From IMG/VR virus record IMGVR_UViG_2724679140_000008: a stretch of 33,770 nucleotides of DNA, one strand, 5' to 3'. The DNA is from a virus (Duplodnaviria; Heunggongvirae; Uroviricota; Caudoviricetes). How positions within the stretch are numbered: position 1 is the stretch's first letter; each line of letters opens with the position of its first letter. Below, one piece after another: positions 18,264 to 33,770 of this stretch. Under the pieces are notes generated by a model, which saw nothing but the letters and a program-made list of their open reading frames with translations, was not told the DNA's origin and made no database searches. A program made the position numbers and the translations under genes.

Positions 18264-18495
18264 TAAGCAAAAAAGCTCCCGAAGGAGCCTTCATTTTCAC
18301 TTTCTTAAATCTAACGACAGATGGCTAACATTTAAGTATTGTGAAATATTATCAAATGTGATCATCATTGATTTACAAAAGATACATTTTGCCCCGAAAG
18401 GATTTCTGTCAGAAACATCAAAAGATGATGTTCTATACTGAGAACCATGGCAACACGGGCATCTAAAGTGAATATGGTTTGTAATATTTTCTACC

Positions 18496-18708
18496 TCAAA
18501 GTGCCACTACATGAACAGCTGCAGGGCCTTTAGGTCCGTTCTCAATACCAAATTCGACTTCCTGATTCTCAGTTAACGTTTTGAAATCGTTGCTCTGAAT
18601 AGCTGAGAAATGCACAAACACATCTTTGCTACCATCTTTCGGCGTGATGAAACCAAAACCTTTTTCAGGGTTAAACCATTTCACTAAACCAGTCATTTTG
18701 TTAGACAT
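18496..18708 (-). CDS. cspI: Cold-shock protein, CspA family (cspI-like)
   Basis: [70 protein letters not shown], with the canonical RNP1/RNP2 cold-shock motifs. A long AT-rich leader lies upstream (18712-19070). Confidence 0.9.
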
Positions 18709-19071
18709 CATTATTACCTTTTGAAGAAGTTAGCCCTTGGGCAGAATGGTCCGAAAAAAAATATCAGAGAGAAAAACCAACAAGGAAATCTCAAGAGGTA
18801 CAAATAATAAAATTATAACAATGACTGCTTCAGATAATTTTGTAACAAACCAGAACACCATTAACGCATGATTAACCAACCATAGCAAGGATTACTTTTG
18901 TAAAGAAAAACACACGAATGAAACAATAGCTTTATTTATTAATAAAACGTGTCATTCTGTCTAATGACCTTTTATCTTACCCTTAAGATTTCAAGGATTT
19001 TGACTCATGGAAGAGTCCTTTTTATTTAAATTTCACATTCAGCGCTAAAAATAATCCGATTTAATATTAAT

Positions 19072-21910: not shown

Positions 21911-22386
21911 AAACAGCGAATCAGATCAAATAAAACGCACATTTGTTAACATTTACACAAAGTCTGCGTGGGATATTCTGAAAGAATATCCATAATGTGG
22001 AGAGAATCTATTGAAGTGCATGGTGCCGGGTGCCTCCCGGTGAATTCAGTACCAGCACCTGAATCCGCGATTATCCCATATACCTACTCGCTGATTGCCC
22101 CTCCGCACAGGGGGATTCACCATGCCAGTTTCTTTTAACAAACTCCCCGCAAACCAGAGAACAGTCAACCGCCTGAATTGTGAAGTATTTAAAAATTTCT
22201 CCCGCTAACTGATACCCGGCTAACAGTCTGGCGTTTTCTTTTTCAGCAACGGGAAAGCAACAACCACCACACCCGCCACCAGCACACTGTCAGCCAGCAC
22301 TGACATTATCCGGCTGCTGCAATGCCATTCACAAAAACAGTAAGCAATCACTTTTTACCGTAACAGGTGATAATCCAGATATGTAT

Positions 22387-22850: not shown

Positions 22851-22927
22851 TGGCGCGCTGTACTGGATTCGAACCAGTGACCGATTGCTTAGAAGGCAAT
22901 TGCTCTGTCCGGCTGAGCTAACAACGC
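22851..22927 (-). tRNA. tRNA-Arg (anticodon UCU)
   Basis: Minus-strand sequence GCGTTGTTAGCTCAGCCGGACAGAGCAATTGCCTTCTAAGCAATCGGTCACTGGTTCGAATCCAGTACAGCGCGCCA: 7-bp acceptor stem, anticodon loop CU-UCU-AA, GGTTCGAATCC T-arm, encoded CCA. Coordinates anchored on the spurious ORF 22762..23049. Confidence 0.9.
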
Positions 22928-23027: not shown

Positions 23028-23103
23028 TGGTGGCCCTTGCTGGATTTGAACCAGCGACCTGGCGATTATGAGTCGCTCGCTCTCACCACTGAGCTAAAGG
23101 GCC
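23028..23103 (-). tRNA. tRNA with CAU anticodon (Ile2-like, ileX/ileZ type; Met not excluded)
   Basis: Minus-strand sequence GGCCCTTTAGCTCAGTGGTGAGAGCGAGCGACTCATAATCGCCAGGTCGCTGGTTCAAATCCAGCAAGGGCCACCA, which closely resembles E. coli ileX as I recall it. Confidence 0.88.
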
Positions 23104-31125: not shown

Positions 31126-31573
31126 TTGCTTTTTCTATAAGTTCGTCAGTTTCACGATCCACTACGGCAGGATCAGCAAAAAGCAGTCCGGACTCCACCA
31201 CATCGCCATATTCTTTGTTTAACCCGGCGATCATGTACGTGATGCTTTTTCCGTCACTAATTTCACGATACAACCTGAAATCATTAATCCGAATAGCCTC
31301 CATAATTGCAGGCACTAGCGCCGTGAACTTTTCACGCTTATCCCTGGTGTCGATAGCCTTCCAGCGTTCGAATATCTTCACTCGATTAACGCCAAGTGCT
31401 CGCTGATCAACCGCGCCACCTTCATCTGTGACACGCTGAACATCGATGTTCGGGCGCTCTTTCAAAGCCCAGAATGCTTCAGTGATTAATATCGTCGCCT
31501 GCTCCTGTGTCATTCCTGGTCGACATATCCAGGCATCCAGAGCCTCACGAGCCTGTTCAGGAGTGATTTTCAT
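31052..31573 (-). CDS. Hypothetical early-region protein
   Basis: ORF-track ORF of 173 aa between dicC and the replication gene; no recognisable motif. Confidence 0.45.
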   Translation of the reverse strand: MKITPEQAREALDAWICRPGMTQEQATILITEAFWALKERPNIDVQRVTDEGGAVDQRALGVNRVKIFERWKAIDTRDKREKFTALVPAIMEAIRINDFRLYREISDGKSITYMIAGLNKEYGDVVESGLLFADPAVVDRETDELIEKAIAFKLAYRQQYQQKAGWNYEPSFC

Positions 31574-31784
31574 TGTTCAACCGCCCCGCCCGCTTCGTCT
31601 TACGATATTCGTCATAAACCTTGGGATCATACAGAAGCTCGCCGCCAGATGCCTCCTGTAGACGCATCGCGCGACCTTCAGGAACCAGCTCTTGCCATTG
31701 AGAAACAGCAGATGGGTCAACGCCAGCAGCTTTCGCTACTTTGGCTTTCGTACCGTAAAAATTAATTACGTCTGATTTAAACAT
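31557..31784 (-). CDS. dicC: Cro-like repressor DicC
   Basis: About 75 aa from MFKSDVINFYGTKAKVAKAAGVDPSAVSQWQ... (HTH); GGAGGT RBS; divergent from dicA. The ORF track extends to 31811. Confidence 0.8.
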   Translation of the reverse strand: MFKSDVINFYGTKAKVAKAAGVDPSAVSQWQELVPEGRAMRLQEASGGELLYDPKVYDEYRKTKRAGRLNNENHS

Positions 31785-31861
31785 CGCACCTCCAATATTG
31801 AGTTTTCTCAATGCTAATCACTCAAGGAATCTCAAGTCAAGGGTTATTAAGATATCTAAAT
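31785..31861. promoter_or_regulatory. dicC/dicA divergent promoter-operator region
   Basis: 77-bp intergenic region containing the palindrome TTGAGTTTTCTCAA and related CTCAAGG/CAAGTCAAGG half-sites. Confidence 0.4.
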
Positions 31862-32269
31862 ATGAACGAGAAAACTTTAGGTCAACGCATTAGAGAAAGA
31901 CGTAAGCAGGTAGGCTTAAGTCAAAACGGTTTAAGCAAAGCTGCTGGCGTATCTGGCTCATCAATTTCATTATGGGAAAGTGACCATACAGCCCCGCGCG
32001 GGCAAAATTTGCATCGCCTCGCCGAGGTATTGCAATGTTCACCAACTTGGATACTGTTTGGCGACGAGGACAAAACACCAGCTCCCCCTGTTTCACTCGA
32101 TAGTGCCTTAGACTTATCGGAAGATGAGTTAGAGATGCTGCGTTTGTATCGCGCACTTCCTAAATCAGAGCAACAAGCACAACTCAGCGAACTCCGCGCC
32201 CGCGTTGAGAATTTTAATCGCCTGTTCACCGAGCTATTAGAGGCTCGCAAACGCAACAAGCATCAATAA
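31862..32269 (+). CDS. dicA: CI-type repressor DicA (XRE-family HTH)
   Basis: 135 aa from MNEKTLGQRIRERRKQVGLSQNGLSKAAGVSGSSISLWES...VLQCSPTWILFGDEDK..., very similar to E. coli DicA. The ORF track starts further upstream at 31811. Confidence 0.9.
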   Translation: MNEKTLGQRIRERRKQVGLSQNGLSKAAGVSGSSISLWESDHTAPRGQNLHRLAEVLQCSPTWILFGDEDKTPAPPVSLDSALDLSEDELEMLRLYRALPKSEQQAQLSELRARVENFNRLFTELLEARKRNKHQ

Positions 32270-32460
32270 TCATCCCTTCACAAAATTTTAAAGCCTTACA
32301 TTTCAATGTATTGGCTTTATCTTGCGCCAACACTTGAGTTTTCTCATCAAAAACCTTGACGAAAAATAATGAGAAAACTAAATTATCTCCATCAAGACAC
32401 CGCACGGTGTTCTCAGCAAACAGTTCCGCTACCCCGGCGTTAAGGGGAAATGAGGTCAGC

Positions 32461-32616
32461 ATGGATACTATCGATCTTGGCAACAGCGAATCTCTGGTAT
32501 GTGGCGTGTTCCCCAACCAGGACGGCACGTTCACCGCGATGACGTATACCAAAAGCAAAACGTTTAAAACCGAAAATGGTGCCCGTCGCTGGCTGGAAAG
32601 AAACTCAGGTGAGTGA
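32461..32616 (+). CDS. ydfA: YdfA-like small protein
   Basis: 51 aa, MDTIDLGNSESLVCGVFPNQDGTFTAMTYTKSKTFKTENGARRWLERNSGE. The ORF track extends upstream to 32356. Confidence 0.8.
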   Translation: MDTIDLGNSESLVCGVFPNQDGTFTAMTYTKSKTFKTENGARRWLERNSGE

Positions 32617-32617
32617 T

Positions 32618-32869
32618 ATGGATTTCGACACAATCATGGAAAAGGCTTACGAAGAATACTTCGAAGGCCTTGCCGAAGGCGAAGAAGCTCTCAGCTTCAG
32701 TGAGTTTAAACAGGCACTCAGAATAAGAATGTGCTCTCACAATGACGCGGAGCACAAATATGAGAAGCAAAATCAGACCGCAGAAAATTTTGTTCTGGAA
32801 CCCGGAGAAACGCTTTTCAAAATTCCCCGTTACGTGCCCCATTTGCGGTTTTACATCAGAAGAACTTGA
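32618..32869 (+). CDS. YdfB-like acidic small protein
   Basis: MDFDTIMEKAYEEYFEGLAEGEEALSFSEFKQALRIRMCSHNDAEHKYEKQNQTAENF...; starts 2 nt after ydfA with AGGTGAG upstream. The ORF track starts at 32576. Confidence 0.55.
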   Translation: MDFDTIMEKAYEEYFEGLAEGEEALSFSEFKQALRIRMCSHNDAEHKYEKQNQTAENFVLEPGETLFKIPRYVPHLRFYIRRT

Positions 32870-33176
32870 CGACTCCTGTAACAATCAGGAAACAACCAAG
32901 TATGTCGAAGATGATACCGAGTGCGCACGAAGAACGATTATATCCACGAGTCCAAACTCCAGGACCAATAAATCTCACTATGAGAGGGTGATTAATCCAC
33001 TCCCCCAAACCAATAAAAAAGATGCCGGAGGACAAAAAACCCAATGGAACAACGGGATATCTGTCAAAAAAAGACGTTCCATTAAAGACAAACAACGCAG
33101 CGCCAACAACTGTAAGAGCTTTATACCAGTAATCAATTTTCATGTTCTTAAGCGGATTTATTGGTGGTTGCGACAT
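32856..33176 (-). CDS. Hypothetical small membrane protein, antisense to the dicB operon
   Basis: 106-aa ORF with two or three hydrophobic segments (ALTVVGAALFVFNG..., GFLSSGIFFIGLG..., ALGIIFDILGCFLIVTGVV). Confidence 0.25.
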   Translation of the reverse strand: MSQPPINPLKNMKIDYWYKALTVVGAALFVFNGTSFFDRYPVVPLGFLSSGIFFIGLGEWINHPLIVRFIGPGVWTRGYNRSSCALGIIFDILGCFLIVTGVVKFF

Positions 33177-33453
33177 TGCTTAATGAATCCTTAAAACTGT
33201 GGTGATTTTAAGGATACCACCTCGCCTGACGTGGTTAAAAGCAGGCACACAACACGAAAGCGCACGGCGAAGTTCGTCTCACTGTACGGTGTCGTTAAAT
33301 TTAATTCGACCGTGCGCTTCCGGTTGTGGCAACCCGCAAAATGGCGCGGCGGTAAGTATGGCGGGGTTATTCCTTCCCCGTTGAGGACACCGGGTTGTCA
33401 GGTTGACCATACGCTTAAGTGACAACCCCGCTGCAACGCCCTCTGTTATCAAT

Positions 33454-33510
33454 TTTCTGGTGACGTTTGGCGGTATCAGTTTTACTCCGTGACTGCTCTG
33501 CCGCCCTTTT
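33454..33510 (+). ncRNA. dicF: DicF small RNA
   Basis: TTTCTGGTGACGTTTGGCGGTATCAGTTTTACTCCGTGACTGCTCTGCCGCCCTTTTT, identical to the E. coli DicF sequence as I recall it, ending in its own terminator hairpin and U-run. Confidence 0.88.
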
Positions 33511-33680
33511 TAAAGTGAATTTTGTGATGCGGTGAATACGGCTAAGCGCACGCGGAACAGTTAAAACCAAAAACAGTGTTATGGGTGGATTCTCTGTATC
33601 CGACGTTAATTGTTAACTGGTTAACGTCACCTGGAGGCACCAGGCACTGCATCACAAAATTCATTGTTGAGGACGCGATA

Positions 33681-33770
33681 ATGAAAACGTTATTACCAAA
33701 CGTTAATACGTCTGAAGGTTGTTTTGAAATTGGTGTCACTATCAGTAATCCTGTATTTACTGAAGATGCC
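33681..33770 (+). CDS. dicB: Cell-division inhibitor DicB, N-terminal 30 codons (gene continues past the window end)
   Basis: ATG after GAGG; MKTLLPNVNTSEGCFEIGVTISNPVFTEDA matches the DicB N-terminus. Confidence 0.88.
   Translation, partial: MKTLLPNVNTSEGCFEIGVTISNPVFTEDA

Follow-up and report, generated by a model that had tools for sequence, protein, structure and literature searches.

What does a hydrophobic open reading frame (ORF) lying antisense to the early operon of a prophage represent: a gene of its own, or only the reflection of the ORF on the other strand? This question is raised by a Caudoviricetes sequence of 33,770 nucleotides (nt), the IMG/VR record IMGVR_UViG_2724679140_000008 (the whole of this stretch is called the window below). 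A sequence-only reading of its last part, positions 31557-33770, had recognised a dicC/dicA switch followed by a ydfA-dicF-dicB operon, and had pointed to a hydrophobic ORF on the opposite strand upstream of dicF. That ORF is indeed in the ORF list, at 32856-33176 on the minus strand; it encodes 106 amino acids (aa) and corresponds to the RefSeq hypothetical protein WP_122986851.1. We examined it by homolog searches, by structure prediction with AlphaFold2 (AF2) and by comparing nonsynonymous with synonymous differences per site (pN and pS). From these comparisons we conclude that the antisense ORF is a real, unannotated gene family with an unusual, statistically well-supported two-strand coding pattern.

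One may first consider that the operon-sense ORF that covers it (phrog_35040, or "long YdfB") is the sole real gene and that the hydrophobic ORF is its shadow, since a hydrophilic protein rich in lysine, asparagine, glutamine and glutamate automatically yields a hydrophobic frame in codon-aligned antisense. Gene finders do favour the sense ORF (P0061, with 1798 member sequences; phrog_35040; gp39 of coliphage mEp390), which is intact in about 99% of the E. coli-type copies. However, unrelated bacteria also possess homologs of the 106-aa protein, with 2-17 stops in the opposite frame, and because of these stops it is the minus-strand frame that defines the family. A protein search gave 60 homologs down to 34% identity, many of them full length (100-110 aa, 34-58% identity), from Yersinia, Herminiimonas, Reinekea and metagenomes, and scanning a single genome of each species extended the range to Providencia, Pantoea, Serratia, Pseudomonas, Shewanella, Arcobacter, Nitrospirales and others; homologs that match over the full length, at 29-58% identity, come from Yersinia, Providencia, Serratia, Pantoea, Herminiimonas, Reinekea and many metagenomes. 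Two motifs, DYWYKA and GEWINHP (within GLGEWINHPL in the window), are invariant in the family alignment (A2). Among the diverged enterobacterial copies, pS in the membrane-protein frame is 0.68-0.73 and pN 0.19-0.31, a ratio of about 0.3-0.4, as opposed to about 0.75 in the sense frame. For the 106-aa protein AF2 gives a confident model, with a mean predicted local distance difference test score (pLDDT) of 85 and three transmembrane helices (residues 17-32, 42-62 and 85-105), whereas that of the sense product has a pLDDT of 40. The distant homologs with opposite-frame stops contradict the idea of a shadow, to which we give hardly any credence, and on this comparative evidence the antisense ORF is a real gene.

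The gene lies within a variable cassette of 530-531 nt (32717-33246), which in an alignment (A1) with the Qin region of E. coli K-12 MG1655 (locus L002) replaces the 3' end of ydfB together with ydfC (L002 3776-4173). The cassette was found in 795 of 5426 complete E. coli genomes (at least 80% coverage and at least 99% identity) and in HannyBb (PP925841.1), an isolated Escherichia phage of 45 kb that also shares the immunity allele of the window. Our literature searches on ydfB and on antisense genes in the dicB operon found no description of it, and of the genes flanking the dicBF locus a survey published in 2016 noted only the variability (PMC5069750).

Is the frame opposite to the membrane-protein gene also kept open? 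In the enterobacterial copies the codon-aligned frame on the other strand is free of stops, even at protein identities of 35-58%, which amounts to the membrane-protein gene never using TTA, CTA or TCA. We collected 95 gene copies from genome and viral collections, forming 52 clusters below 85% identity; a scan of viral contigs with the family alignment yielded near-identical E. coli copies only, and two added scans used divergent members. Two subtypes of the protein can be told apart by the loop between helices 1 and 2, which in the phage type reads xNGxG...YP. An opposite stop is lacking in 20 of the 23 phage-type clusters (with opposite ORFs of 150-280 aa) versus 5 of the 29 clusters of the other subtype, three of which have a guanine-plus-cytosine (GC) content of at least 54% (Fisher's exact test, p = 7e-7). 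When the phage type is restricted to a GC content of up to 0.52 and the other subtype to 0.40-0.52, the counts become 18 of 21 versus 2 of 13 (p = 8e-5). With the codon usage of the window, the chance that a lineage contains none of the three codons is 0.11-0.30. On these counts both frames are open across diverged lineages beyond what chance would produce, as one expects of an antiparallel pair.

These numbers also bear on the suggestion that a decaying prophage carries the cassette as inert mosaic filler, its ORFs being open by chance or owing to a recent insertion. In its favour, the E. coli copies are at least 99% identical to each other, so that there has been little time for decay, and the sense ORF is already frameshifted in the window. 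Yet more than 20 phage lineages, the isolated phages HannyBb and mEp390 among them, keep the pair at protein identities as low as 35-50%, the membrane-protein frame is under purifying selection, and the frame opposite to it is depleted of stops (p = 7e-7). The comparative data contradict inert filler, and we consider it very improbable.

The frameshift concerns one strand only. The first part of the sense ORF, ydfB' (32618-32869, plus strand), begins with residues 1-34 of K-12 YdfB and is labelled a ydfB pseudogene in RefSeq, while its continuation in another frame (32826-33194, plus strand), codon-aligned with the membrane-protein gene on the opposite strand, spans the whole of that gene. The frame is shifted at 32822-32825, where the run has one C too many (CCCC instead of CCC), and this leads to the stop at 32869; with CCC, 32618-33194 is a single ORF of 191 aa (phrog_35040), which gene finders call as 205 aa. 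Most copies of the cassette are 1 nt shorter than that of the window, and among IMG/VR contigs 119 have CCC and one has CCCC. The antisense ORF does not include the indel and is intact with either version. In the window, then, the sense ORF is frameshifted, and the membrane-protein gene, dicF, the DicF precursor and the start of dicB are intact.

The annotation of the cassette is inconsistent among records. The NCBI pipeline PGAP usually reports a 102-nt "ydfB" pseudogene and nothing else, the 106-aa gene appearing only in records with a frameshift in the sense ORF. In phage annotations (HannyBb, mEp390 gp39, phrog_35040) it is the sense ORF that is called, and overall the membrane-protein gene is almost never annotated. 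The entries phrog_35040, mEp390 gp39 and the "protein YdfB" pseudogene all denote the sense ORF of the cassette, taken to be either the sole gene or a defective ydfB. Copies of the sense ORF in some E. coli prophages (P0067, P0068 and P0070) lack a stop beyond the cassette and run in frame into YdfC, with read-through products of 245-271 aa; cassette and ydfC can therefore coexist in one operon.

The homologs in enterobacterial prophages are always neighbours of the repressor gene and are encoded antisense to the early-left operon, inside it or at its beginning, the exceptions being those in pR contexts. Repressor-adjacent examples include two CI-type repressor lineages, Yersinia, two Rac-like prophages (with KilR and RecE) and Providencia, and the neighbouring repressors are of the CI, DicA or RacR type. 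In Serratia and in coliphage mEp390 the pair occupies a place between cro and cII in the early-right operon, to which it is likewise antisense; gp39 in the mEp390 annotation is the operon-sense ORF, and the membrane-protein gene is unannotated there.

The position and orientation in the early-left operon are those of sieB, which in lambda, P22 and Rac is likewise a membrane-protein gene opposite to the early-left operon and near the repressor. In the annotated lambda record it fills the corresponding slot and points the same way (N-[sieB]-ral). Rac has sieB between ydaF, a DUF1391 gene, and a pair consisting of a small RNA and a division inhibitor (kilS and kilR), and the order racR-ydaG-ydaF(DUF1391)-[sieB]-kilS-kilR parallels dicA-ydfA(DUF1391)-ydfB'-[106-aa gene]-dicF-dicB. 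What the 106-aa gene shares with the sieB exclusion genes is position, orientation and predicted transmembrane helices, all read from sequence. SieB proteins are longer (162-184 aa versus 106 aa), no sequence similarity to them was detected, and at permissive thresholds the 106-aa protein matched neither the SieB family nor any other in Pfam, PHROGs, NCBIfam and PADLOC. Moreover, sieB of lambda and of Rac has 4-19 stops in every antisense frame, whereas here an open sense ORF covers the whole gene; an open antisense frame is thus ruled out as a general need of the sieB slot.

The neighbourhoods of other family members vary. In the prophage lineage at 58% identity, a transfer RNA (tRNA) gene (L005 4803-4875) adjoins the promoter side of the membrane-protein gene, which is the place of dicF in E. 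coli. The Reinekea homolog (L012 / L013) belongs to a series of small ORFs, all on one strand, that precedes a ParD-like gene, and the Herminiimonas homolog (L011) stands between an AsmA-family gene and a DUF5677 gene; both are outside prophages.

Does the sense ORF encode a protein as well? Its frame remains open for 30-100 codons past the 3' end of the membrane-protein gene, and this extension carries one of two conserved motif classes: hPxxCPxCG[F/C] in the window, Rac-like prophages, Yersinia and several viral contigs, and PGSVxIDxExxxVxLxGWxLE in mEp390, Serratia and others. For the first class, 18 codons that do not overlap the membrane-protein gene have a pooled pS of 0.70 and pN of 0.30 in the plus frame (ratio 0.42), compared with 0.8-1.2 in the other frames, all from small samples; these codons vary mostly at third positions, for example ATT/ATC/ATA for isoleucine and CCC/CCG/CCA/CCT for proline. 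Within the overlap, the synonymous codons of the membrane-protein gene are somewhat more conserved than controls. In Serratia the sense ORF overlaps the start of cII, which is consistent with translational coupling. As judged from these alignments, nearly all phage-borne relatives keep the operon-sense frame free of stops, whether in a pL or in a pR (cro-cII) context, and since a conserved N-terminal segment also lies outside the overlap, the cassette appears to be read on both strands.

This arrangement suggests how the two strands might be used. In the lysogen, DicA would repress PdicB and the membrane-protein gene would be transcribed from a promoter of its own, the product, a predicted inner-membrane protein, conferring a membrane-level trait on the lysogen, most probably phage exclusion or abortive infection. 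Once PdicB fires, convergent transcription and translation through the cassette would shut the membrane-protein gene off, and the sense ORF would either encode a functional protein or ensure that the operon transcript stays occupied by ribosomes. A bolder reading, to which we give clearly less than an even chance, is a true antiparallel nested pair kept by temperate phages of Enterobacterales next to their immunity switch, in which a membrane protein of lysogeny would be encoded opposite, and codon-aligned, to the C-terminal two thirds of an early lytic protein, the repressor would choose the strand, and the early product or its translation would act as the antidote to the membrane protein. 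In phage P22, SieB is countered by Esc. A precedent in layout comes from Fc02, a Mu-like phage of Pseudomonas. There, a lysogen-expressed exclusion gene next to the repressor overlaps an early lytic gene on the opposite strand (PMC9936078); this pair, olg1 and gene 10, has the same layout near the immunity switch, and both products give superinfection exclusion. The proteins of Fc02 are unrelated to those described here (olg1 encodes 7.9 kDa), and expression and phenotype were measured there, whereas here function is inferred.

A candidate for the promoter of the membrane-protein gene is an extended -10-like element, TGGTATCCT (33211-33219, minus strand), 35 nt upstream of its ATG. The element came to light only through aligned upstream regions, in which it is kept as TGGTATC(C/A/T)T in the cassettes of E. 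coli, Rac-like prophages, Yersinia and Providencia (TGGTATCNT). An inverted repeat, TCCTTAAAA-N9-TTTTAAGGA (33188-33214), seen both in the alignment and in RNA folding, spans the stop of the sense ORF, the Shine-Dalgarno sequence of the membrane-protein gene and the -10 element, and a second inverted repeat is found at 33224-33246, between the stop of the sense ORF and the RNase III stem described below. The arms of both repeats covary between lineages (for example, GCCTG/CAGGC is matched by GCCGGG/CCCGGC in Providencia).

A repeat that overlaps a Shine-Dalgarno sequence is also what one might look for in a type I toxin-antitoxin or suicide module, in which the small membrane protein would be toxic and the operon transcript would serve just as antisense RNA. 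The protein is small and hydrophobic, the convergent transcript covers its gene fully, and Rac and Qin hold other small toxic genes (hokD, relBE, kilR and dicB). Nevertheless, with 106 aa and three helices it exceeds typical type I toxins, its chromosomal homologs elsewhere have no antisense partner, and the antisense transcript would be the one that is repressed, leaving a toxin unopposed in the lysogen. The open sense frame would also go unexplained, and we regard such a module as quite improbable.

Several observations weigh against our main reading, in which the cassette is read on both strands and its membrane protein probably serves phage exclusion. The two-hexamer promoter scan found no minus-strand promoter for the membrane-protein gene, and to take the extended -10-like element as that promoter is an inference of the consensus type. 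Similarity of the 106-aa protein to known exclusion or defence proteins was found neither in Pfam nor in PHROGs, PADLOC or NCBIfam, and fold searches with it were uninformative. The distant homologs reside in non-prophage chromosomal contexts, and the basic activity of the family therefore need not concern phages. That both ORFs are intact in the E. coli copies is not independent evidence, because these copies are at least 99% identical. As for the sense product, its ORF is also broken in the N-terminal part in Yersinia L008 and in L014, its AF2 model has no predicted fold and is too poor for a fold search, and the sense-frame pN/pS of about 0.75 within the overlap, compared with controls of at least 1 (small samples), suggests that selection on sense amino acids is weak there.

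The last points lead to an alternative, namely that only the membrane-protein gene is functional and the sense polypeptide is filler. The opposite frame would be kept open so that the early operon stays translated over the 320-nt insert, since at a stop codon ribosomes would part from RNA polymerase, leaving the transcript open to Rho-dependent termination or to decay before it reaches dicF, dicB and exo, or cII and O. Such a view accounts for an openness that is kept in both pL and pR contexts while pN/pS in the overlap is only about 0.75, for a sense product with a pLDDT of 40, for N-terminal parts that differ in kind between contexts, and for sense ORFs that abut cII in Serratia and the next ORF in L019. 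It does not account for the 18 non-overlapping codons under purifying selection at the protein level, nor for motif classes that are kept across many lineages and that filler would not need; and sieB of Rac and lambda, in the same slot but with 4-19 stops, indicates that translation across an antisense insert is not generally required. We consider the filler explanation rather unlikely, a cassette read on both strands being the more probable interpretation.

How does the rest of the locus compare with that of K-12? We think it probable that the region is a lambdoid prophage immunity switch of the Qin/P22-immC type followed by an early-left (dicB) operon, mosaic at two places relative to K-12 and carrying a two-strand cassette. 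The first of the two swapped segments (about 31690-32395) is the immunity module and the second (32717-33246) is the cassette; near-identical to K-12 in the alignment are the 3' half of dicC, the operon leader, ydfA, codons 1-34 of ydfB and everything from about 33248 onwards. The whole 2.2-kb stretch is found at 99.8-99.9% identity in E. coli chromosomes such as that of GB089, where the RefSeq labels read Cro/CI regulator, helix-turn-helix (HTH) protein, ydfA, ydfB pseudogene, opposite-strand hypothetical protein, dicB and ydfD.

Within the immunity module, the Cro-like gene dicC (31557-31784, minus strand, 75 aa) matches NCBIfam NF007282 at 165 bits (cut-off 130) and the Pfam family P22_Cro, and the repressor gene dicA (31862-32269, plus strand, 135 aa) matches NF007257 at 239 bits (cut-off 101). 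DicC is 70% identical to its K-12 counterpart, with an identical C-terminal half and a divergent N-terminal HTH part, and DicA is 57% identical, with a different recognition-helix region, so that the differences fall in the DNA-binding parts of both proteins. A repeat search found the operator-like sequence TTGAGTTTTCTCA at 31798-31810 between dicC and dicA, at 32334-32346 and, inverted, at 32369-32382, whereas the K-12 operator repeats are of the TTAGnnnnnnCTAA type. Two of these copies bracket a promoter-like sequence found by a promoter scan, TTGACG-17-TAAATT (32356-32384, plus strand), which has the position of dicBp in K-12 (PMC10448788) and which we take as a putative PdicB. This is the organisation of the Qin type, in which dicA and dicC diverge and operator copies recur at their promoters as well as at PdicB. 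The N-terminus of dicC, the operators, dicA and PdicB together form a different immunity allele, of the DicA/DicC kind but with another specificity. A perfect 14-nt inverted repeat, ACGCCAGCAGCTTT / AAAGCTGCTGGCGT, has one copy in dicC (31720-31733) and one in dicA (31937-31950), each encoding the KAAGV of the respective HTH motif, on opposite strands.

The operon leader contains a conserved hairpin, CCCCGGCGTTAAGGGG (32432-32447, plus strand), identified in the alignment just before ydfA. It precedes the first ORF also in Qin-like, Rac-like and Yersinia prophages (L008, L014, L015), and in the Yersinia version, GCCCAGCGTTAAGGGC, the closing pair has changed in a compensatory manner. The hairpin might act as a nut/boxB-like element or in processing. 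The gene ydfA itself (32461-32616, plus strand) matches DUF1391 (PF07151, 96 bits) and has about 97% nucleotide identity to K-12. The Qin-type gene set ydfA-ydfB-ydfC is incomplete here, with ydfA present, only 34 codons of ydfB remaining and ydfC absent.

Two nucleases release DicF from the operon transcript of K-12: RNase III produces a 190-nt species and RNase E the 53-nt form (PMC10448788). The window has a dicF gene identical to that of K-12 at 33455-33506 (plus strand), with a full-length match to Rfam RF00039, terminator hairpin included, at 76.7 bits (gathering score 48), and the precursor region has a single mismatch to K-12 over 33306-33506. RNA folding predicts a long stem of the RNase III-cut type at the 5' end of the 190-nt precursor (33248-33329, plus strand), whose arms (about 33248-33271 and 33306-33329) are kept as in K-12, only the apical loop being different. 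The DicF precursor and its RNase III stem are conserved, as far as alignment and folding can tell. The first 29 codons of dicB (33682-33770, plus strand; the window ends within the gene), assigned from the K-12 alignment and from RefSeq at an identical locus, encode the K-12 amino acids with two synonymous differences.

Part of what the sequence-only reading had proposed is borne out by these comparisons. The dicC/dicA switch and the ydfA-dicF-dicB operon are supported part by part by curated models or by identity to K-12, DicF and the N-terminus of DicB had been recognised correctly, and ydfC is missing both from the ORF list and from the K-12 alignment. The alignment gives colinear flanks with the 3' end of ydfB and ydfC replaced, so that no intact ydfC is left, as had been suggested, but it does not give the shortening of the region upstream of dicF (about 1 kb against about 1.5 kb in K-12) that had been put forward. 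The distance from the start of ydfA to that of dicF is 994 nt here (32461 to 33455) and 874 nt in K-12 (L002 3509 to 4383), so that the region here exceeds that of K-12 by 120 nt rather than falling short of it by about 500 nt, because the 531-nt cassette stands in for a K-12 segment of 398 nt. The supposition that RNA structure around dicF differs finds no support either, since the 190-nt precursor lies wholly within the conserved part. What had been overlooked are the other immunity allele, the membership of the antisense ORF in a widespread family in the sieB position, and the fact that a conserved sense ORF is frameshifted.

Apart from the cassette, the locus is, by sequence comparison, an ordinary Qin-type prophage mosaic, and what distinguishes it from K-12 is a heteroimmune switch and a cassette in place of ydfC. 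In the K-12 Qin dicBF operon (dicC/dicA, ydfABC-dicF-dicB-ydfD) the order and orientation of dicC, dicA, PdicB, the leader, ydfA, the start of ydfB, the RNase III stem, dicF and dicB are the same; it differs in its immunity allele and operators, in having no opposite-strand cassette gene and in its 874-nt ydfA-dicF distance.

Additional RNA matches accompany this kind of locus elsewhere. Phage HannyBb contains DicF at L004 3738-3789 (Rfam, 72.5 bits); a paper of 2016 reported that DicF and DicB were not found in phage genome databases. Downstream of dicF in a Rac-like prophage that has the cassette, the C4 antisense RNA (81 bits) and isrK (64 bits) are matched at L014 3242-3430, adjoining an Ash/Rha-type gene. 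In the window itself, other Rfam matches on the minus strand are the cspA thermoregulator (110 bits), STnc100 (114 bits) and two tRNA genes, at 18450-18866, 21964-22154, 22854-22927 and 23031-23103.

About 15% of complete E. coli genomes carry this alternative dicBF operon, with an opposite-strand gene upstream of the DicF precursor and a heteroimmune DicA, and results on regulation obtained in K-12 therefore need not transfer to these strains. The conserved membrane-protein family is almost never called, as gene finders pick the longer opposite ORF, and one PHROG family as well as the PGAP pseudogene calls rest on that choice. The depletion of stops opposite to the gene, in more than 20 diverged phage lineages and in both pL and pR contexts, is unusually clean comparative support for a two-strand reading, and the pattern offers a testable model in which the choice of strand would be coupled to the lysis-lysogeny switch.

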